Part shown: piece after piece, positions 3,001 through 40,457 of the stretch | Layout of the letters: each line of letters opens with the position of its first letter | How positions within the stretch are numbered: the first letter of the stretch is position 1 | NCBI RefSeq assembly: GCF_001677475.2 | Contig: NZ_CP015229.1 | Reading direction: 5' to 3' (one strand) | Origin: Escherichia coli | Lineage (GTDB): Bacteria; Pseudomonadota; Gammaproteobacteria; Enterobacterales; Enterobacteriaceae | Length of the DNA stretch: 64,000 bases | Program-made: the position numbers and the translations under genes | Notes under the pieces: model-generated | The model's database searches: none | What the model saw: only the letters and a program-made list of their open reading frames with translations | What the model was told of the DNA's origin: nothing

Positions 3001-5598
3001 TGCCAGCGCGGTCGTGGTTTTACCCAGCCCGGTGCCGAAGCCCAGGATGCCGCGCCCATCTTCGGACAGTCGGCGCACCTCGCTATTCTGGTAATCAAAT
3101 GGCTGACGCTTACCGCTTAATCCCTTCAACCCAAGCGGATCGCCAGAGTGTTCATACGGGATATTGCTATTGAACACATCGTTGTATTTGGCAACCAGCT
3201 CATCGTAGCGATCGTGCGTCTTGATCCACTTATTGAACTGGTCCTCAAGCAGTGCCATCTGCTCGCGGTAGCCGTTCGCCGTCGCGCTATCTTTGCCACC
3301 GATACGCGCACCATTGAGATACTTTTCCAGCTGTGCCGGGAACCCGGTCGCGTTTTCACCTGATTTACGGTCCCACTCGTAGCGGATCTCGCCTGTTTCT
3401 TTATCCTTGCGCTGGACGACACCGTATCGGTGCCCGACGAACAGACCATCACCACCGTGATAGGTGTCAGAAACCATTTCGTCGCCTTCCAGCTGCACTG
3501 ACTGCACATAGCGCAGATCCGGATAGCCGTTTTTCTGCAAAAACTCCAGAATGACGGAGCGGTCGAACCAACGGCTATTGAGCTTAAAGCGGATATTCTC
3601 TGCTGGCGTCTTGATGCGCTTCTCTTCGATCGCTGCCAGCTGATTAAGGACGTTGTTCTTTACTGGACCGTCGGGGAGTGTGGCAAGGAATTCCTGTTTT
3701 GGAGCCACTATCTCGTTAATGTCGCCGCTGGTGGCGCGGGCGAACGGAACAATCCCGCCATACGGTGAAACCGCAATACCAGGGGTGCTGGCCAATAAAT
3801 TAAGCAACTCTTCATCACTGGCTGGCAGTTCGCCGGTAAACGCAAGGCGGAAATCATCGAGCTGGATTGGATCGCGGGTAAGATCGCTATAGAGATAACG
3901 CAGGGTGTCCTGATAGCTGGTGGAGTCATAACTGGCGCTGGAATCATGCGTAACCAGCTTTCCTGTCAGCTCGTCAGAAATAGTGCCATCCAGCTTAATT
4001 GCCCCACGGAAAGCAAACCAGGCGCGCGCACCGCTTCCCGATAATTTAGCTATCGGACCGCGACCGGGGTTACCAAAACGGTCAATCTCTGCCTGCAAAC
4101 GGGATACCAGAGAAAGGCGCTTCTGTTCGATTTGTTCAGCACTATGCCCGGCGGCCTTCATATCCTGATATTCAATTAACATCCGGCCAATCATCGCCCC
4201 GCGATACAAGCGTTCACGGTATTTTTCAGGCTGGCTGTTAATCCAGTCCACCAGCTGCACCATATCGTCGCTGATTGATGTGGTGTACTTATCGCGGACA
4301 TTTGCCATCTGGGTAAATGTCATACCGAGACGGCCTTCTGTTGTAGTCAGGTTACGCTGAAGAGCCTCCCAGCTATCCGCGCCATAACTGGCAGCATCAA
4401 TCTTAAGCTCCTTACCAGCATCAGCTTCAATCCAGCGACCACCAGCATATTTTTGCCATACGCCATTAATCAGGCGCATTTCCCCTTCATCAACAACATC
4501 TGCGGTCGGTGACGGTTCAGCCATATCGAGCAAAGACCAGTCGATACGACTTTCGAAACGATGAATCAGCTTCGCTTTAAGAGCCTGGTTATCAATCTGC
4601 CCGTCGGCACGAACCTCAATACGCCCCTGGAAGCCCTTTTCCTGGGTACCATGAACAAACCGGCGGCCATCCTTTTCAAACCACTTGCCAGAAATAAACG
4701 TTGGCCAAAGCACATTTGCCGATTCAAGAGTGCTTTCATCCACCAGGGGGATTTTCTCAGCCATCTCTGCCGGATGTTTGCGCATCAGCACCACATCAAC
4801 GACTGTACTGGTCCCGTTTGCGTCAAAAGTACCGGTAGGCAAGCGGTGGGCACCAAGAAATTCAGCTTTCCGTGATAGGCGCAGGCGTAACCGCTTCATG
4901 TTTGAACCTGAAACAATGGACGGCGGCACAATCACGCACATGAATCCGCCTGGCTTTATCTTGTCCAGCATGCGGAGCATGAAGTAAGAACCCATGTCCG
5001 TTTCTTCTGCGTAAGGCTTATCGATGTTGCGTGTGTTATCACGACCGCCGAACGGAACGTTACCCACAACATGGTCGAATGAATCGTTAGGTGTGCTTAT
5101 AGCCAGCTGTTCGAACGGGGAAATCTGTACGCTGTCTTCCGGGTGTAACAACTGGTTTATACGACCGGAAACACTGCTGATCTCAGTCGCGGTCATCACC
5201 GTACCAACCGGTTTTGTCTCATTAAAAACGCCAGTTCCCGCCGATGGTTCCAGAGTGTTACCTACGTCCGCGCCGTAGAGCTTCATGATCTCCCAGACAC
5301 CTTCAGCGATCGGCTTTGGTGTGTAATATTCGGAGACGGACCCGCCAATGCCGCCTTCACCGGTGTACCCAGCCAGGATCTGGCGCTGTTCATCTGTCAG
5401 TGTCGCGCCGTCCACCAGCGAATTAAGCAAATCTATCGCCTTCTGATTCGCCTCCCGGCGCAGTCGGTCATAGCTTTTGCCTTCCACCTTTTCCACGCCG
5501 TATTTAATCGGCGCTCGGTGAGATGTTATTGCCCTAATGTATTTCAATATTTCGCTGACACTTGAACAGCGAAACACCCCCATAGATAGCTTGTTCAT
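1..5598 (-). CDS. darB: DarB-like antirestriction protein, N-terminal methyltransferase plus helicase domains; partial, C-terminus lies beyond window start
   Basis: Reverse-strand frame opens at ATG 5598 behind an AAGGA RBS and stays open to position 1; it is absent from the ORF track because it has no stop in the window. Translation shows an amino-methyltransferase-like motif (GNVPFG), Walker A (GFGTGLGKTT) and DEGH helicase motif. Position next to portal/protease/lyz/ssb matches P1 order. Confidence 0.75.
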   Translation of the reverse strand, partial: MNKLSMGVFRCSSVSEILKYIRAITSHRAPIKYGVEKVEGKSYDRLRREANQKAIDLLNSLVDGATLTDEQRQILAGYTGEGGIGGSVSEYYTPKPIAEGVWEIMKLYGADVGNTLEPSAGTGVFNETKPVGTVMTATEISSVSGRINQLLHPEDSVQISPFEQLAISTPNDSFDHVVGNVPFGGRDNTRNIDKPYAEETDMGSYFMLRMLDKIKPGGFMCVIVPPSIVSGSNMKRLRLRLSRKAEFLGAHRLPTGTFDANGTSTVVDVVLMRKHPAEMAEKIPLVDESTLESANVLWPTFISGKWFEKDGRRFVHGTQEKGFQGRIEVRADGQIDNQALKAKLIHRFESRIDWSLLDMAEPSPTADVVDEGEMRLINGVWQKYAGGRWIEADAGKELKIDAASYGADSWEALQRNLTTTEGRLGMTFTQMANVRDKYTTSISDDMVQLVDWINSQPEKYRERLYRGAMIGRMLIEYQDMKAAGHSAEQIEQKRLSLVSRLQAEIDRFGNPGRGPIAKLSGSGARAWFAFRGAIKLDGTISDELTGKLVTHDSSASYDSTSYQDTLRYLYSDLTRDPIQLDDFRLAFTGELPASDEELLNLLASTPGIAVSPYGGIVPFARATSGDINEIVAPKQEFLATLPDGPVKNNVLNQLAAIEEKRIKTPAENIRFKLNSRWFDRSVILEFLQKNGYPDLRYVQSVQLEGDEMVSDTYHGGDGLFVGHRYGVVQRKDKETGEIRYEWDRKSGENATGFPAQLEKYLNGARIGGKDSATANGYREQMALLEDQFNKWIKTHDRYDELVAKYNDVFNSNIPYEHSGDPLGLKGLSGKRQPFDYQNSEVRRLSEDGRGILGFGTGLGKTTTALALEAFNYENGRSTRTAYVVPKSVLENWYYEAKEFLSEEAFSNYLFVGLDVLMDGDQIRQVPVLDENGKPVLGADGTPVMRDALKLADEATITARMNAIPHSNYRAVVFTKEQYARIPLRDDTVDEHAQDMLYDFVAAGRVASAMDSDSHRKEAARRRVLSEYSDTGTEKAEKYPYFEDMGFDSVIADEGHNYRNSYKNGREASQLAYLPTSAVAQSARDMAIKNAYLMKKNGGRGPVLLTATPVVNTPIDAYNMLSHVLPKEYWQKMGIYGPDDFVKFFGKTRLETVQKISGEVEEKMALVGFENLDALRGIFHRWVTLKTAEDVKDTVEIPELDEHQQDAPLTEEQLAAYEELRQQAEAAAKANNGVTTSVNEDGVIEHEKARPIFSIIRDMDRVCTDMDLYYRRITYRFLPEYADAVQQLADSLPKQATSEDDDSDDSITQQSQYSLIDKGEFIQLQVPEAFEQEVNKRLAKFGIDEQTVTHPVTPKYAKLIATLKEFFPEGKQIIFTDEKTQHQKLKRIICNALNLEPSKVGILNAQTVAEAGKTGQKLKAVKPPKELPDEPTDAQIAKYNEQMALYDAYIAQQNEMSLGGLEKIAADFQEGWTPIIICNKKAEVGINLHRGTTDIHHLTLPWTPASIAQRNGRGARVGSNRASVRVHYYCGKGSFDEYRLKTLKRKAGWISDILRSDKSEMENADANDMIEMQMYTAKDDGERLAMMQVQMDKAKAAQRARQKEQATIDLQNYIKAQHAAGEDVEVLTAELERSKAEFEKSTDEVAKFKQAVMAKAADNADWKARWGSVHHTDRMLLAQYRASLKSAIQRKANISQAISRYEKLLNRTQKAATDIKRLRPLVEDAINKGILDVDPDLVNHANEFLVIGDRSWRVGQYYDCAGDIVRIKSLDFDSQRADVEIIFTFKGTKSGNWDVKTLDKQVDVTPDEDAVMQKISGGVSIAGINDIISCDDFYRFQQRGMIKITDSYGVQTTESGYSIDFVGTYTN

Positions 5599-9377: not shown

Positions 9378-9394
9378 ATTGCTCTAATTAATTT
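9378..9394 (+). promoter_or_regulatory. P1 C1-repressor operator-like site upstream of ssb
   Basis: ATTGCTCTAATTAATTT matches the recalled C1 operator consensus ATTGCTCTAATAAATTT at 16 of 17 positions. Confidence 0.5.
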
Positions 9395-21253: not shown

Positions 21254-21674
21254 CCTGTGCGAGATTTATTACGTAACTTCTGCGGATTTGCTGAGTAACA
21301 GGGAAAATCCGATACAACGGGTTAATGAACGAGTCGCCATGCGTAACCATGACGTTGAAATGCCACAGTCGCTCTCCTTTACCCATATATTCAGTGGGTA
21401 TGTACAACCATTCACTGTTTTCGCCCTGTTCAGCTGACGTCAGACAACGTTGTTCGCCTTCAATCACTGTCGTCGGCTTCTGAACATCGCGGATCCAATA
21501 TCTGACCGTTGCGCCGCGCAAAAACGGGAATTTAGACCGGTATTTGAACGGCACCCGGATGAAACCCGGTTTAATTTCCACATCACCAAGTTCTAAATGC
21601 GTGATGTCCTTGCGTTTTAGCAAATAGCGATCGGCTAAGGCTAACGCAAGAACGCATACACCCCAGCCAATCAT
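21231..21674 (-). CDS. LydB-like putative antiholin/lysis regulator with N-terminal signal-anchor
   Basis: Position after holin-like gene at the head of the dar operon. Confidence 0.4.
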   Translation of the reverse strand: MIGWGVCVLALALADRYLLKRKDITHLELGDVEIKPGFIRVPFKYRSKFPFLRGATVRYWIRDVQKPTTVIEGEQRCLTSAEQGENSEWLYIPTEYMGKGERLWHFNVMVTHGDSFINPLYRIFPVTQQIRRSYVINLAQDVSDDEK

Positions 21675-22000
21675 TTCCCGCCTCCCTTTTTCACCAAACT
21701 TGTAAGAACATTCAGAATGCTATCGATATTCACTCGTTTCATCCCTGAAATCACCTCATGACCGTTATTGCTGGCTATCGTTACCATTAAGTACGTAATT
21801 GATAACTCCCAGCCCTCGTGTTGCCCCAATAGGTACGCCACCGCGCCAGCTGTCACTGCAACAAAGATCTCCGTAACCAATCCCAACAAATTGCCAGACT
21901 GGCGACCGTCTCGGACATCCATCAGGAACGTGCCTATCCCACCAATTACTGAAAGCAGGAGCGCAATAGCAACTGGAGCTAATTCCTGTGTGTCAAGCAC
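21671..22000 (-). CDS. putative holin (LydA-like), three predicted transmembrane segments
   Basis: 109 aa, hydrophobic helices, charged C-terminus. Confidence 0.5.
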   Translation of the reverse strand: MLDTQELAPVAIALLLSVIGGIGTFLMDVRDGRQSGNLLGLVTEIFVAVTAGAVAYLLGQHEGWELSITYLMVTIASNNGHEVISGMKRVNIDSILNVLTSLVKKGGGK

Positions 22001-22060
22001 AAGTTCCCTCCTACGTTGTCAGGAGGTAATGGTATGCAAAGTAACTTCTCATCTGGTTGT

Positions 22061-22345
22061 TCATAATTTGCCAATACATTCGTAAATCAAGTGAAAAACC
22101 CATATTTTGGTTATTCTTAATACAAAATGGCTATTCCAACTACATATCAAAAAAGCAACCACATTCAAAAATGAGTTTCCCCACTGAACTTCTGCAAGAC
22201 AAAAACCAACAAAACCACCTTTTATGGCAAGCAGCCATGCTTCAAGCCAATGTAAAAAACATGGCTTATAAGCTCCACGCCTAACTCCAGTAAGAAATAA
22301 ATAGGTTCCACTAATAATGGACATTAAAAAAATCAAAATCTGCAT
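22061..22345 (-). CDS. hypothetical small membrane protein
   Basis: ATG behind a strong GGGAGGAG RBS; three hydrophobic segments; sits in the AT-rich region upstream of the dar operon. Confidence 0.45.
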   Translation of the reverse strand: MQILIFLMSIISGTYLFLTGVRRGAYKPCFLHWLEAWLLAIKGGFVGFCLAEVQWGNSFLNVVAFLICSWNSHFVLRITKIWVFHLIYECIGKL

Positions 22346-22466
22346 AAGCTCCTCCCGGATCTAACAAAAATCAAGCAGGAACCTATTCAGATTGTTATTT
22401 CTGTGCATAACGCTTTGTTCTTTAAAATTCGCAGACTCATAAGAACAACGCATTAGAGTAAAAATC

Positions 22467-23027
22467 ATGCTGATCGGCTATGTACGCGTATCAACAAATG
22501 AACAAAACACTGCTTTGCAACGAAATGCCCTTGAAAGCGCAGGATGTGAGCTAATTTTTGAGGATAAGGCGAGCGGCAAAAAGACTGAACGCCCTGGGCT
22601 AAAAAAGGTTTTGCGTATGCTTTCCAGAGGTGACACCCTGGTCGTATGGAAGTTAGATCGTCTTGGGCGCAGCATGCGTCACTTGGTTGTGCTGGTGGAA
22701 GAGCTGCGTGACAGAGGAATTAATTTCCGGAGTCTCACTGACTCTATCGACACCAGTACACCAATGGGGCGTTTTTTCTTTCACGTAATGGGGGCGCTGG
22801 CTGAAATGGAACGCGAGCTTATCGTTGAACGTACACGCGCTGGACTTGATGCAGCTCGCGCAGAAGGTCGAATAGGAGGCCGTCGGCCTAAATACCAAGA
22901 AGAAACATGGCAGCAAATGCGTCGATTGCTGGAGAATGGCATCCCCCGTAAGCAGGTTGCAATCATCTATGATGTTGCTGTTTCCACGCTTTATAAAAAG
23001 TTTCCTGCGTCATCATTTCAATCCTAA
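22467..23027 (+). CDS. cin: Cin/Gin/Hin-family serine DNA invertase, 186 aa
   Basis: Resolvase catalytic N-terminus (GYVRVSTNEQ), C-terminal HTH; sits beside an invertible tail-fibre segment. Confidence 0.95.
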   Translation: MLIGYVRVSTNEQNTALQRNALESAGCELIFEDKASGKKTERPGLKKVLRMLSRGDTLVVWKLDRLGRSMRHLVVLVEELRDRGINFRSLTDSIDTSTPMGRFFFHVMGALAEMERELIVERTRAGLDAARAEGRIGGRRPKYQEETWQQMRRLLENGIPRKQVAIIYDVAVSTLYKKFPASSFQS

Positions 23028-23046
23028 ACCTTGGTTTAAGAGAACT
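23020..23046. other. cix-like recombination site (left)
   Basis: Imperfect palindrome TCCTAAACC-TT-GGTTTAAGA resembling gix/cix crossover sites, at the exact point where Sv-prime homology to S begins. Confidence 0.65.
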
Positions 23047-23074
23047 CGGTACCAGCGGTGAAAAGATCCCCCTG

Positions 23075-24676
23075 TTGAGCACGGCTAACACATGGAGTGC
23101 GCGCCAGACTTTCAACGGCGGGATCACCGGAGCGCTGACAGGGAACGCCGATACCGCAACGAAATTGAAAACAGCCAGAAACATTAATGGCGTCAGGTTC
23201 GATGGTTCTGGTGACATTAATATCAATACTATGGTATCGCGTGGTCGCGTAACGGCTCTGGGGGCGAATGCACAGGGGACATCCGGGATTCAGCTGTATG
23301 AGGCATACAACAATGGCTACCCTTCCCCCTATGGCAATGTGCTTCACCTTAAAGGTGCCACCGCTGCTGGCGAAGGTGAGTTATTCATTGGCTGGAGTGG
23401 CACGAGTGGTGACCATGCGCCCGTACATATCCGTTCGCGGCGGGATACTGATTCTGCTAACTGGTCTGAATGGGCGCAGGTCTATACGTCAAAAGATTCC
23501 GTTCCCGGCGTTAATGCCAAAGGGAATCAGGACACCTCTGGTAATGCGGCTACAGCGACTAAATTGCAGACAGCATGTACTATTAACGGTGTCTCGTTTG
23601 ATGGTTCTAAAAACATTGAGTTAACGGCGGAAGATTTAAATCTACAGGAATTCATTAATAAAGCAAATAATGCCGTTCAGCGTTCAGGCGATATCTTGTC
23701 CGGCGGGCTTACTTTTGAAAATGACTCAATCCTTGCCTGGATTCGAAATACTGACTGGGCAAAGATTGGATTTAAAAATGATGCCGACAGCGATACTGAT
23801 TCATACATGTGGTTTGAAACAGGCGACAACGGAAATGAATATTTCAAATGGAGAAGCCGCCAGAGCACCACAACAAAAGACCTGATGAATCTTAAATGGG
23901 ATGCTTTGTCTGTCCTTGTTAAAGCCCTTTTCAGCAGTGAAGTAAAAATATCGACAGTCAATGCACTGAGGATATTTAATTCATCTTTTGGTGCTATTTT
24001 TCGTCGCTCTGAAGAATGCCTGCATATCATCCCTACACGAGAGAATGAGGGAGAAAATGGTGATATAGGGCCACTACGCCCCTTTACGCTTAATCTCAGA
24101 ACTGGTCGGATAAGCATGGGGCATGGTCTGGATGTTACAGGAGATATAACAACTAACGCCTGGGTGTATGCAAACAGGTTTGCTATTAATAGTGGCTCAA
24201 CCTCATGGATTGATATGCGAAACCAGAATGTCATTTTTGGTAGAAACGCAGTATCAACAAGTTCTGCGCAGGCTTTGTTAAGACAAGACCATGCAGAACG
24301 CAAATTTTTTGTCGGTGGACTTGGTAACTACCAGTTTGGTTTTTACATGATTAATAATTCAAGGACAGCCAATGGCACCGATGGTCAGGCGTACATGGAT
24401 AATAACGGAAACTGGCTTTGCGGTGCGCAAGTTATTCCCGGCAACTATGGCAATTTTGATTCCAGATATGTGAAAGATGTTCGACTTGGTTCACAGCAAT
24501 ATTATGGAGTGAACAACTGGCAAACATGGAATTTCCAGTGCCCGTCAGGTCATGTATTGTCTGGTATTAATGTTCAGGATACAGGGTCCAACTCTGCCGA
24601 TAATATAGCTGGCGTTTATTACAGACCCGTTCAAAAGTATATAAATGGCACCTGGTATAATGTAGCGAGCGTTTAA
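23075..24676 (+). CDS. alternative tail-fibre variable part (Sv-prime), promoterless in this orientation
   Basis: First about 190 aa are about 80 percent identical to the matching region of S; open frame extends upstream to the cix-like site. Confidence 0.75.
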
Positions 24677-28702: not shown

Positions 28703-29137
28703 TTATGCTGTAGTCGTGTTTATGGCCATAACTGCGGTATATGTTTTGCCCACATACAGCGAGTCTTCCTGGACACAAATAATGGCGATTGGCTTGTTCT
28801 CGTTATCCAGAACAACCAGAGTGTTGAATGGGTAGTTTTTCCCTTCCTGCAACTGGCTTTGATCAAGGTCCATTCGGACAGTAATTATCCCGCCTGAGTA
28901 GGTTGGGACGAGGTTGATGGTGCAAAATTGACTGGTCAGTTCTGCCAGATCGAAAGCCTTTGGCAGTTCTCCAATCTCATAAGTGCCATCTCCTTTCTTA
29001 GTAACCAGTGAACTGGTACCGAAAACGGCCTTGCTGATTAAAAATCGAGAGCCTTTGTTAATGGACGATTCAGCGCGCCGCTGATAGTAATAGTCCAACA
29101 ACTGACTCTTATAGAGGTTTGTTGAGACGTCAGACAT
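28703..29137 (-). CDS. tail fibre-associated protein (P1 R position)
   Basis: Track ORF immediately upstream of S. Confidence 0.45.
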   Translation of the reverse strand: MSDVSTNLYKSQLLDYYYQRRAESSINKGSRFLISKAVFGTSSLVTKKGDGTYEIGELPKAFDLAELTSQFCTINLVPTYSGGIITVRMDLDQSQLQEGKNYPFNTLVVLDNENKPIAIICVQEDSLYVGKTYTAVMAINTTTA

Positions 29138-29215
29138 GATTTTCCCTAATCAATGTTGTGAAGCCTCATTGTAAGAGAAGTAACTTGTCACCCCGCCCTG
29201 CGGACGGGGTGATTG

Positions 29216-36865: not shown

Positions 36866-37310
<445 letters not shown>

Positions 37311-37400: not shown

Positions 37401-37916
37401 TCAACCTGCCTTTGCTTTTACGCTGTGTGAGAGAATACTTGCTTCAATTTCTTCCAAAATCTCTCTGACTTGCTCGTCGGACATATCAACCAACATCAAT
37501 GCAGCCAGGCGTTTACGACCCTCTAGTTGCAGCAGTTCTTGAGTATCTTTGTCCAATAAGCGTAGTACCGTTTCAACGCCTTTCCTTGCGAACATGCTGG
37601 TAAGAGCCTCTCGTTCTTCACTAGTAAGAAACGAGAGCATCTCAGTTAGCTGATCGCCTTGACTTAAACTGCTTTGTGATTCTTGTATTTTTGGTGGGTT
37701 TCCGTTGCCTGTTTTTAACCATTCAAGACTAACACCTTCACTTTCTGCAATGCGTACCAATATGCTTTCTCGAGGTTCTGGTGTGTTTCCCTTTTTAAAA
37801 TAGCTTTGTAACGTATTGATATTTATTCCCCAGGCTCTGGCTGCAGCACTTCTTGATGGATACCGTCTAATAAGATATGCCATGCGCTCTACGATAGGTT
37901 CTTTTGCTTGCTCCAT
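37401..37916 (-). CDS. Mu-like prophage repressor (c-like), N-terminal HTH
   Basis: Leftward gene divergent from ner/A/B; HTH-like segment RSAAARAWGININTLQSY. Confidence 0.6.
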   Translation of the reverse strand: MEQAKEPIVERMAYLIRRYPSRSAAARAWGININTLQSYFKKGNTPEPRESILVRIAESEGVSLEWLKTGNGNPPKIQESQSSLSQGDQLTEMLSFLTSEEREALTSMFARKGVETVLRLLDKDTQELLQLEGRKRLAALMLVDMSDEQVREILEEIEASILSHSVKAKAG

Positions 37917-38107: not shown

Positions 38108-38359
38108 ATGAGACAAAGAGAAGATCGCGACCGCGATTGGCCTTCGCTAAAGATTCAGCTGGCGCTCAAAGATAATGGGTGGTCTTCCTTCCGGGAGCTT
38201 TCACTCCATGCTGGTTATGCTCAGGATTCACTGAAAGCGGTAGTTCGTACACCGAACAAAAAATACGAACGCGTAATTTCTGACGCTATAGGTGTACCGC
38301 CAGAAATCATCTGGCCCAGCCGGTATCGTAACGATGGATTTATCAGGAAGGCGTCGTGA
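38108..38359 (+). CDS. ner: Ner-like DNA-binding protein
   Basis: Pattern DW...L...SL.ALS...GY...L......P...E.II...L...PE.IWPSRY matches Mu Ner/Nlp. Confidence 0.8.
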   Translation: MRQREDRDRDWPSLKIQLALKDNGWSSFRELSLHAGYAQDSLKAVVRTPNKKYERVISDAIGVPPEIIWPSRYRNDGFIRKAS

Positions 38360-38360
38360 T

Positions 38361-40457
38361 ATGCAGTTGTACGTTACCGCAAACGACTTGCTCGGCGTAC
38401 CAGGAATGCCAGTCACTGCAAAAGGTATCCGTCAGGCGTTACAGCGTTTTGCCCATGGGCGCAATGACGTTAGCCGCCGACGTGAAGGCACAAAAGCCAT
38501 TGAATACCACATCGATTGCCTGCCAGAGGTAACTCAAAGGGCACTGCGTGAACGCTATGTGGAACAGCTGGTGGCTACAGAGAACAATGTTTCTGAAGTG
38601 AAGGTTGTTACCAGGAAGGCTCGTAATCCTGATGCAGTCCAGGCAATCGAAGCATATCGCGGTTCTCCACAACTGATGGAAGAACGCCTGAACGCGTTGA
38701 CCGAAAACCAGCGCCGGGTATCTGAAGCAAGATCTGCGCTGGTGGTGGAAGTGCTGAGGCTGGAAAGAGACGGTGATCTCGGGCGACTGAAAGCCATTAA
38801 CTTTCTTGTCGAAAAAGCCCGTAAAGGTGAACTACCGGAACGCCTGCAACAGGCCGCAGTTAACGCCAATGCAAAACGTGGTGCTAATCGCACCATCAGT
38901 CGTGACCCACTTTATCAGTGGGTGCTGAAGTACAACCAGTCACAGAACGCCGCAGAACGGCTGCTGTTACTGGCACCAGGAAAACGCGACGAAATAAAAC
39001 CGGAGGAAATTAGCTGGCTACCTGAATTTCTGGCGCAGTATCGCCAGGCGAATGGCAGACCTATGTCAGAAGCCTACGAAGATTTTGTCGCGGAATGGCA
39101 GCGTCGCCATGCAGACGAACCCTACATGATAGAGGTGATGCCCTCTTACGATGTGGTTCGTTATGCCATGAAGAAATTGCCGGAAGTGGTGAAACAAAAA
39201 GGCCGTGTTACCGGCAGTGAATACCGTCAGCTTGAAGGATTCACCCGCCGCGACTGGACAGCTATGCCGGTGAATTATGTCTGGATTGGTGACGGTCACG
39301 GTATGAAGCTGAAATGTGCGCATCCGATCCACGGGCGTCCATTCTCACCAGAAGTCACGTTTGTGATCGACGGTGGAACCCGGTTTGTTGTTGGCTGGAG
39401 TCTTGATCTTGCCGAGAACGTTTTCGCCGTTGCCGGAGCGATACAGCACGGCATTCGCAACCACGGAAAACCGTTCCTGTATTACTCGGATAACGGTTCT
39501 GGTGAAACGGCTGACATGCTTGACAAAGAGGTCGTGGGTATTCTGCCCCGCCTGGGGATTAAACACCCAACAGGTATTGCCGGTAATCCACAGGGGCGCG
39601 GCATTATTGAACGCCTGAACCGGACACTGCCGATGCGTATAGCCAGGAGGTATCGCACCTATTTTGGCAAGGGTGCTGACCGGGAATCGTTGCGTGTACT
39701 TAACCGTGATCTGCGTTCAGCGTTTAACGCCCTGCAACAGGACAAGCCTCTGAACGACCGCCAGAAAGCTGCAATGCGCGAGCTACCATCGTGGGCGGAG
39801 CTTATTGAGGCTATTCGTGAAGGCGTGGAATGGTACAACAACCGCCCGCATTCTGAGCTGCCTATGAAACCGAACGGGCGGCATTACAGCCCGGCAGAGT
39901 TCAGAAAAAAACGCCTGGCAGAAGAAGACACCGAAATTGAGTGGCTGAGTGATCTTGAGCTGCGCGACATGTTCCGCCCGATGGTGGAGCGTCCGGTAAA
40001 ACGCTGTGAAATCAAATGGCTTGGCAATATTTATTACGCGCCGGAGCTGCGTGACGAACACGGTCGCAAAGTGCTTATCAGTTATGACATTCATGACGCC
40101 GAGCGAATTACGGTACGTCGCAAGGACGGCAGCTTTATCTGTGAGGCGATATGGAACGGCAATAAACGCGCAGCCTTCCCTGTCAGTGCGGAATATCACA
40201 AACAACAGCAGCGTATTAAAGGGATGCGCAAACGCGCTGAGGAAAAAATTCGCGATGCTGAAGATGAAGGTATTCAGATTCTGGAACACAAACAGGCTGA
40301 ACCCTGGCTGGATAATGTTTATCGCCCGGTTGGTAATGTGGTGGCCGTTCAGCAACCGGAATATGAAGAAGAGCATGACGAAGAATTTGAACGCGATTTC
40401 AGACTGGGGATGCAAAAACTTTTTGCCATGCAGGAAGAAGATGATCCGCTGGCCTGA
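38361..40457 (+). CDS. Mu-type DDE transposase A
   Basis: Track ORF 38292-40457 trimmed to the ATG; N-terminus parallels Mu A (PG.P.T..G......KGGKAIEY); about 700 aa. Confidence 0.85.
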   Translation: MQLYVTANDLLGVPGMPVTAKGIRQALQRFAHGRNDVSRRREGTKAIEYHIDCLPEVTQRALRERYVEQLVATENNVSEVKVVTRKARNPDAVQAIEAYRGSPQLMEERLNALTENQRRVSEARSALVVEVLRLERDGDLGRLKAINFLVEKARKGELPERLQQAAVNANAKRGANRTISRDPLYQWVLKYNQSQNAAERLLLLAPGKRDEIKPEEISWLPEFLAQYRQANGRPMSEAYEDFVAEWQRRHADEPYMIEVMPSYDVVRYAMKKLPEVVKQKGRVTGSEYRQLEGFTRRDWTAMPVNYVWIGDGHGMKLKCAHPIHGRPFSPEVTFVIDGGTRFVVGWSLDLAENVFAVAGAIQHGIRNHGKPFLYYSDNGSGETADMLDKEVVGILPRLGIKHPTGIAGNPQGRGIIERLNRTLPMRIARRYRTYFGKGADRESLRVLNRDLRSAFNALQQDKPLNDRQKAAMRELPSWAELIEAIREGVEWYNNRPHSELPMKPNGRHYSPAEFRKKRLAEEDTEIEWLSDLELRDMFRPMVERPVKRCEIKWLGNIYYAPELRDEHGRKVLISYDIHDAERITVRRKDGSFICEAIWNGNKRAAFPVSAEYHKQQQRIKGMRKRAEEKIRDAEDEGIQILEHKQAEPWLDNVYRPVGNVVAVQQPEYEEEHDEEFERDFRLGMQKLFAMQEEDDPLA

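Follow-up and report, generated by a model that had tools for sequence, protein, structure and literature searches.

What is the gene that fills the 466 bp between the holin gene lydA and the DNA invertase gene cin, and which signals around it control its neighbours? The window, by which we mean the whole stretch of DNA that was analysed, comprises 64,000 nt of one strand of contig NZ_CP015229.1 from the Escherichia coli assembly GCF_001677475.2. To judge from its sequence, it is a phage-plasmid of the P1/P7 family, and the 466 bp interval is the lydC locus already known there, together with two control regions of divergent orientation. The region 21600–22600 is 99.8% identical to the phage-plasmid RCS47 and 99.7% identical to phage P7 (AF503408), and the gene order annotated in both across the matching stretch is lydB, lydA, lydC, cin. 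Transferred to window coordinates, the features of the P7 record fall at 22061–22345 (lydC), 22029–22047 (LPdar), 22446–22462 [Op(lydC)] and 22467–23027 (cin). The interval has exact limits: the GTG of lydA begins at 22000 on the minus strand, and the ATG of cin has its A at 22467. The locus is already annotated in P7 and P1, in the P7 record with lydC, LPdar and a predicted C1 operator, and there is nothing new in its identity. An earlier sequence-only reading of this DNA had missed that the gene is already named and, as its P1 allele, studied (PMC9025707). The features of the locus are the following.

21671–22000, minus strand: lydA, the main holin gene, with a GTG start codon at 22000..21998 (Pfam PF16083, 30.1 bits; PHROG 1527, 4.3e-49; P7 annotation).
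22007–22026, minus strand: predicted hairpin in the lydA leader, CCUCCUG (22026..22020), ACAACG, UAGGAGG (22013..22007), 7 bp (fold and inverted repeat).
22029–22047, minus strand: late promoter LPdar, AAGTTACTTTGCATACCAT, with a palindromic -22 box AAGTTACTT (22047..22039), TGCA and the -10 hexamer TACCAT (22034..22029) (annotated in P7, P1 and AJ000741).
22052–22466, no strand assigned: P7-type replacement module of 415 bp, consisting of lydC and the lydC–cin spacer (divergence from the P1 type).
22061–22345, minus strand: lydC, P7-type allele, 94 amino acids, a LydA/LydC-family holin-like membrane protein (ORF list, P7 annotation and profiles).
22349–22356, minus strand: ribosome-binding site of lydC, GGGAGGAG (read from the sequence).
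22423–22428, plus strand: TAAAAT, the -10 element of the predicted cin promoter 'P1cin' (P1 annotation).
22446–22462, minus strand: Op(lydC), a predicted C1 operator (P7 annotation; weak).
22467–23027, plus strand: cin, the serine DNA invertase of the C segment (Pfam Resolvase, 3.8e-51; HTH_7, 2.4e-18; P7 and P1 annotation).

The G+C content of 22001–22466 is 0.356 (35.6%), compared with 0.512 for the whole window. Equally low values occur in just 0.16% of the 466 bp stretches of the window, and the lowest of these all lie at the lydC locus. The AT-richness that the sequence-only reading had noted is therefore real, as is the 94-codon minus-strand ORF with a strong ribosome-binding site that it had pointed out at 22061–22345. 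The sequence upstream of this ORF reads ...CCGGGAGGAGCUU-AUG, in which GGAGG (22355..22351) is positioned 5 nt before the ATG. Two further ORFs were taken as spurious. One, of 75 codons on the plus strand (22057–22284), is antisense to lydC; the other, of 35 codons on the minus strand (22361–22468), has neither a PHROG match nor a Shine–Dalgarno sequence, and its frame is broken in P1 by indels in the spacer. A scan of both strands of 21500–23200 against Rfam returned no known RNA family, and a match to a plant-virus pseudoknot was at chance level (E = 0.98; 20.5 bits, the gathering score being 65). Of the neighbouring products, that of 109 amino acids (LydA) fits the holin model PF16083 and that of 147 amino acids fits the LydB model with E = 8e-104.

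The 94-residue product is 98.9% identical to LydC of P7 (AAQ07503) and of RCS47, and the P7 record names the ORF lydC, 'lysis determinant C; putative holin'. In RefSeq the P7-type protein is labelled 'hypothetical protein', while most of the listed P1-type records carry the label 'phage holin family protein'. The holin family PHROG 1527, to which LydA also belongs, matches residues 1–92 of the window LydC with E = 2e-35. This profile may include the P7-type allele as a member, and the comparison was hence repeated between profiles, using as the target P1-type LydC, LydA and the holin of phage D6, with zero P7-type sequences in it. The P7-type profile aligned to this target by hhalign over 76 columns with a probability of 97.5%, E = 5.6e-12 and 29% identity. 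Invariant across the family alignment are Ser9, Gly13, Leu18, Ala40 and, in the third helix, an I-x-S-x-N motif formed by Ile67, Ser69 and Asn71.

Pfam gives no match to the window LydC even at E ≤ 1; its relatives P1 LydC (30.4 bits), 673R5 LydC (38.6 bits) and LydA (30.1 bits) all score above the gathering threshold of 28.4 bits of PF16083 (Phage_holin_3_3). NCBIfam returned zero matches for the window LydC, P1 LydC or LydA. With BLASTP, the window LydC aligns to P1 LydC with 30% identity over 73 residues and gives no alignment with the adjacent LydA. Among 5.8 billion proteins, a word-indexed search retrieved nothing beyond near-identical copies of the allele. Besides the allele itself, an exhaustive phmmer search of 1.84 billion representatives returned a single match (P0004, 894 amino acids), a repeat protein whose score sums weak repeats and which we consider spurious. 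The homology of the window LydC to the LydA/LydC holin family, as judged from the profile alignments, is nevertheless secure, though Pfam does not recognise it. The small membrane protein expected from the sequence is thus the annotated LydC. Its gene lies directly upstream of lydA (holin) and lydB (antagonist), which is a holin gene context, and with 94 residues and at least one predicted transmembrane helix it falls within the size generally used for holins (fewer than 150 amino acids).

Kyte–Doolittle profiles with a 19-residue window have peaks at residues 3–21 (2.09), 33–51 (1.42) and 58–76 (1.46) and a weaker one at 74–92 (1.25). The three hydrophobic segments that had been read from the translation are a fair description of the three strong peaks, to which a C-terminal amphipathic helix has to be added. 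The AlphaFold2 model, calculated from a nine-sequence alignment that included LydA, is a helical bundle with helices at residues 2–22, 30–54, 58–70 and 72–92 and a mean pLDDT of 80.4. The best viral matches to this model in Foldseek are LydA-type holins (TM-score 0.76, rmsd 2.5 Å), with weak E-values. The N-terminus bears no charge, loop 1 contains RRGAYK (+3), the short loop 2 has only Glu52, and Arg77 and Lys80 follow the third segment. By the positive-inside rule, this distribution suggests a topology with the N-terminus out, three membrane spans and the C-terminus in. In the window LydC the hydrophobicity of the third segment (1.46) is like that of the second; the values for the third segment are 0.75 in P1 LydC and 0.78 in LydA. 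The less hydrophobic third segment of the latter two agrees with the two helices that are predicted for them in the literature. Within the last 18 residues, RITKIWVFHLIYECIGKL, Arg77, Lys80, Glu89 and Lys93 are charged and the remainder is hydrophobic and aromatic, whereas the usual C-terminal tail of a holin is charged. The aromatic content of the protein as a whole is unusually high, with 20 Phe, Trp, Tyr or His residues.

For P1, the gene of LydC (93 amino acids) has been described as monocistronic, under a putative early promoter and directly before the dar operon (PMC9025707). The reported identity of the protein to LydA is 29%, and two transmembrane helices are predicted in it (PMC9025707). 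Cloned lydC or lydA is toxic, and a lydC frameshift delays lysis both in E. coli and in Enterobacter cloacae (PMC9025707). A P1 lydA lydD double mutant that keeps lydC forms no plaques, hence the assignment of LydC as an accessory holin, and LydC was concluded to behave as a canonical holin (PMC9025707). In a CRISPRi screen P1 lydC was non-essential (PMC10695390). Transcript or protein data for lydC were not found in the literature for either allele, and the supplementary text of the P1 RNA-seq paper (PMC8201110), in the part available, has no lydC entry.

The best explanation, in which we place good confidence, is that LydC of the window is an accessory holin-family protein of lysis timing at the known lydC locus. 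Judged by P1 LydC, its site of insertion is most likely the cytoplasmic membrane. There it would join LydA, the main holin, and LydD, the pinholin, in timing the permeabilisation of the membrane, which would release the SAR endolysin Lyz, and it would be an accessory and non-essential factor in this timing. Holin activity of the P7-type allele is presumed from that of the P1 protein, and lydC presumably also has a promoter and an expression timing of its own.

A different role for the same protein is suggested by one of the P1 experiments. In P1 with lambda R replacing lyz, loss of lydC slightly sped up lysis in E. coli, and the authors raised a possible timing role (PMC9025707). P7-type LydC might accordingly not form holes at all and instead regulate LydA, as an antiholin-like protein or timing modulator that enters mixed oligomers with LydA in the membrane. 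The unusually aromatic composition, the lack of a typical charged holin tail, the third strongly hydrophobic segment that P1 LydC and LydA do not have and the position of lydC directly upstream of lydA would all suit such a regulator. P1 LydC, however, was concluded to behave as a canonical holin that is toxic when cloned and the loss of which usually delays lysis (PMC9025707), and we consider a purely regulatory LydC improbable.

The putative accessory holin is encoded on a sharply bounded piece of DNA. P1 and the window are identical through position 22051, four bases upstream of the LPdar -22 box; beyond it lydC diverges, the lydC–cin spacer is only partially similar and good alignment resumes at the cin ATG. 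This P7-type module is present in 19 plasmids of PLSDB (16 from Escherichia and three from Salmonella) and in 27 of 5426 complete E. coli genomes, where it is plasmid-borne every time. The P1-type module matched 229 plasmids, 213 of them at a coverage of at least 80%. The P7 type is thus the rarer version of lydC, with 19 plasmids compared with 213 that carry the P1 type at near full length. The lydC–cin–S segment is one of eight hypervariable regions in P1-like phage-plasmids (PMC9603915), and phage D6 has a single holin gene between cin and lydB and no lydC.

Composition sets the module apart as well. Its G+C content is 34.7%, that of the lydC ORF is 33.7% compared with 41.5% for P1 lydC, and GC3 in lydC is 0.274, compared with 0.468 in P1 lydC and 0.44–0.51 in the neighbouring genes (lydA, 0.509; cin, 0.439). 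Low G+C, a sharp replacement boundary at 22051/22052, the lack of relatives beyond the allele itself in an exhaustive search and the description of lydC as separate, monocistronic and under a putative early promoter (PMC9025707) would also be compatible with a horizontally acquired 'moron', the membrane protein of which serves the lysogen, in superinfection exclusion or envelope modification, and not lysis. Against this, LydC is homologous to the LydA/P1-LydC holins and its gene takes exactly the place of lydC, expression of holin-family proteins is toxic (PMC9025707) and promoter scans of the interval gave no sign of a promoter active in the lysogen. A role of this kind is very unlikely.

Within the P7-type allele there is little variation. 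The lydC frame is intact in every copy examined (19 plasmids and 27 E. coli genomes), and one variant LydC (P0002) has an in-frame deletion of three residues. The differences are Asn61/Asp61 and Ile81/Val81, which amounts to two non-synonymous and zero synonymous substitutions. Codon 61 (window position 22165) is AAT (Asn) in the window and GAT (Asp) in P7 and three variant plasmids examined; Asn61 is also found in plasmid p3 of E. coli EC02, the module of which is 100% identical. dN/dS is uninformative at both levels, with only two substitutions within the allele and with protein sequences too diverged (30% identity) between the alleles. We see hardly any prospect that lydC is a decaying or silent remnant without function in this lineage, as its dispensability in P1 (PMC10695390), its absence from D6, the exclusively non-synonymous differences and the RefSeq label 'hypothetical protein' might suggest, given that the frame is intact in all copies and the one deletion in-frame, the ribosome-binding site is strong and the residues conserved in the family are retained.

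Downstream of lydC, the interval contains the late promoter that had been suspected there for the lydA/dar operon, at 22047..22029 on the minus strand and identical to the LPdar annotated in P1 and P7. It consists of a 9 bp inverted repeat near -22 and a -10 hexamer and has no -35 element, as is characteristic of these late promoters. The lydC stop codon is followed 13 nt later by the -22 box, and the stretch from lydC to lydA contains no predicted terminator. Late gene expression in P1 needs the phage factor Lpa and the host protein SspA (PMC8201110). The Lpa-dependent LPdar drives lydA, lydB, hdf, darA and genes beyond. The pattern AAGTNACTT-N4-TANNNT occurs in two exact copies in the window, LPdar and a second copy at 29186..29168 (minus strand). 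The second copy reads AAGTTACTT-CTCT-TACAAT, and 32 nt downstream of it there is an ATG at 29136; in EC02 p3 it is followed by a 435 bp gene for a 'hypothetical protein' and then by tail-protein genes.

The leader of lydA can fold into the 7 bp hairpin listed above, in which the lydA Shine–Dalgarno sequence AGGAGG (22012..22007) is paired. The predicted energy is -10.7 kcal/mol (z = -3.3), a value equalled by one in 200 shuffled sequences. The hairpin is invariant in P1, SJ46 and 673R5, the P1-type loci examined, and therefore carries no covariation evidence. D6, without lydC, has a different leader, which is a single comparison. With the usual spacing from the end of the -10 hexamer at 22029, late transcripts should start at about 22023–22020, inside the 5' arm of the hairpin, and transcripts from LPdar consequently cannot form it; the folds predicted for them are weaker (-6.9 to -7.3 kcal/mol). 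The hairpin could thereby keep lydA untranslated in transcripts that read through from lydC, with the ribosome-binding site left free in those from LPdar, and translation of the main holin would then wait for the late promoter to fire. If the hairpin works in this way, it would explain how the holin operon can lie right downstream of an unterminated gene without premature holin synthesis. The three-span topology, if true, would mean that phages of the P1 family exchange accessory holins of distinct function as a cassette. We regard these two ideas as tentative and rather doubtful, namely three spans in the P7-type protein compared with two in the P1 type, or a lydA hairpin that masks the ribosome-binding site in read-through transcripts only.

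On the other side of lydC, the -10 element TAAAAT of P1cin is shared by the window, P7, P1 and pLHM10-1, whereas in D6 it is not conserved. In a loose promoter scan P1cin matches at 8/12 positions, with a best -35 of 3/6 at a spacing of 15 bp (the criterion being 16–18 bp). P2cin, the second promoter predicted in P1, is not conserved in the window. Of the cin promoter that had been proposed to lie in the interval, the -10 element therefore stands, while the poor -35 and the loss of P2cin leave the promoter as a whole plausible only. A weak plus-strand promoter with TAAAAT (22423–22428) as its -10 probably drives cin. A strict promoter and terminator scan of 21900–22600 gave no promoters, and the one terminator that it placed inside cin is at chance level. 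No convincing sigma-70 promoter for lydC emerged from either the strict or the loose scan; the loose candidate TTGATA-N19-CATGAT (22494..22464, minus strand) has poor spacing, and such matches occur about seven times per kb.

The lydC–cin spacer also contains two sequence features of a different kind. A block (A/T)TTGTNATTTC at 22391–22401, about 65–75 nt upstream of the cin ATG, is conserved in the window, P1 and the distant D6, and the rest of the spacer around it has diverged between the three. The block may belong to the cin promoter or be bound by a protein. An inverted repeat at 22408–22422/22441–22455 (13 of 15 positions complementary, 18 nt apart) flanks the TAAAAT element and overlaps Op(lydC). 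By a rough estimate it is borderline by chance, and a substitution within it in pLHM10-1 is uncompensated.

The predicted operator Op(lydC) was compared with the 17 bp asymmetric sequence ATTGCTCTAATAAATTT, which we take to be the C1 operator consensus and which is backed by a copy with a single mismatch at window position 9378. Op(lydC) matches it at 11 of 17 positions (six mismatches), and 76 sites in the window score equally well or better, three of them within the interval. Its core ATTAGAG is changed to ATAGGAG in the variant plasmids pLHM10-1 and p28322-3. With a chance-level score and a core that is not conserved, Op(lydC) is unsupported as a C1 operator. Elsewhere in the window, plus-strand matches to the consensus at 9378–9394 and 5528–5544 have one and three mismatches, with 0.11 such matches expected by chance; judged by these scores, they presumably mark genuine C1-controlled promoters elsewhere in the phage.

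The P1-like homology of the window ends near 37152, where a Mu-like transposable prophage starts (37152–64000, with the junction near 37152–37155). Copies of the motif ATTCAAGATAA lie at 37169, 37240 and 37291, an ORF of 171 amino acids lies at 37401–37916 (minus strand), and a Mu-type transposase of 721 amino acids is encoded at 38292–40457 (plus strand; Pfam Mu-transpos_C, 4.4e-18, and HTH_Tnp_Mu_1). The element has 84–86% DNA identity to D108, SfMu and Yersinia Mu-like phages over about 5 kb, and from about 46 kb the G+C content climbs to 0.57–0.59. In the otherwise matching EC02 p3 the P1-like sequence runs on through an intact 567 bp gene at this junction, so that the Mu-like element appears to interrupt that gene in the window. 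The window ORF 36866–37174 would be its truncated remnant.

The importance of the present locus is small, as both P7 and P1 are already annotated here and genetic work has described the P1 allele. What the comparison adds is the recognition of a divergent and poorly recognised P7-type allele in a sharply bounded AT-rich module, together with the failure of the predicted C1 operator by its sequence score. In about 8% of P1-like plasmids, lydC is present as an allele to which current pipelines give the label 'hypothetical protein', and the P7-type protein can be re-labelled as a LydA/LydC-family holin-like protein. The results obtained with P1 LydC should not be carried over to the P7-type allele without testing.

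Among known systems, the closest is LydC of P7 and RCS47, with a 98.9% identical protein in the same place between LPdar and cin; P7 LydC differs by one residue, which is Asn61 in the window and Asp61 in P7. P1 LydC (AAQ14002) occupies the same slot, belongs to the same family and shares the order of helices and the I-x-S-x-N motif at a similar length (93 versus 94 amino acids). It differs in that the identity is only 30%, it passes the PF16083 threshold that the window LydC fails, and its C-terminus is charged where that of the window protein is hydrophobic. LydA of P1 and P7 resembles the window LydC in its membership of PHROG 1527, in its fold (TM-score 0.76) and in the adjacency of its gene to lydC, but LydA and its antagonist LydB are both expressed from the late promoter, upstream of which lydC is located. 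As a P1 late promoter, LPdar of the window has the same -22 box and the same -10 hexamer, with no difference from the P1 sequence.
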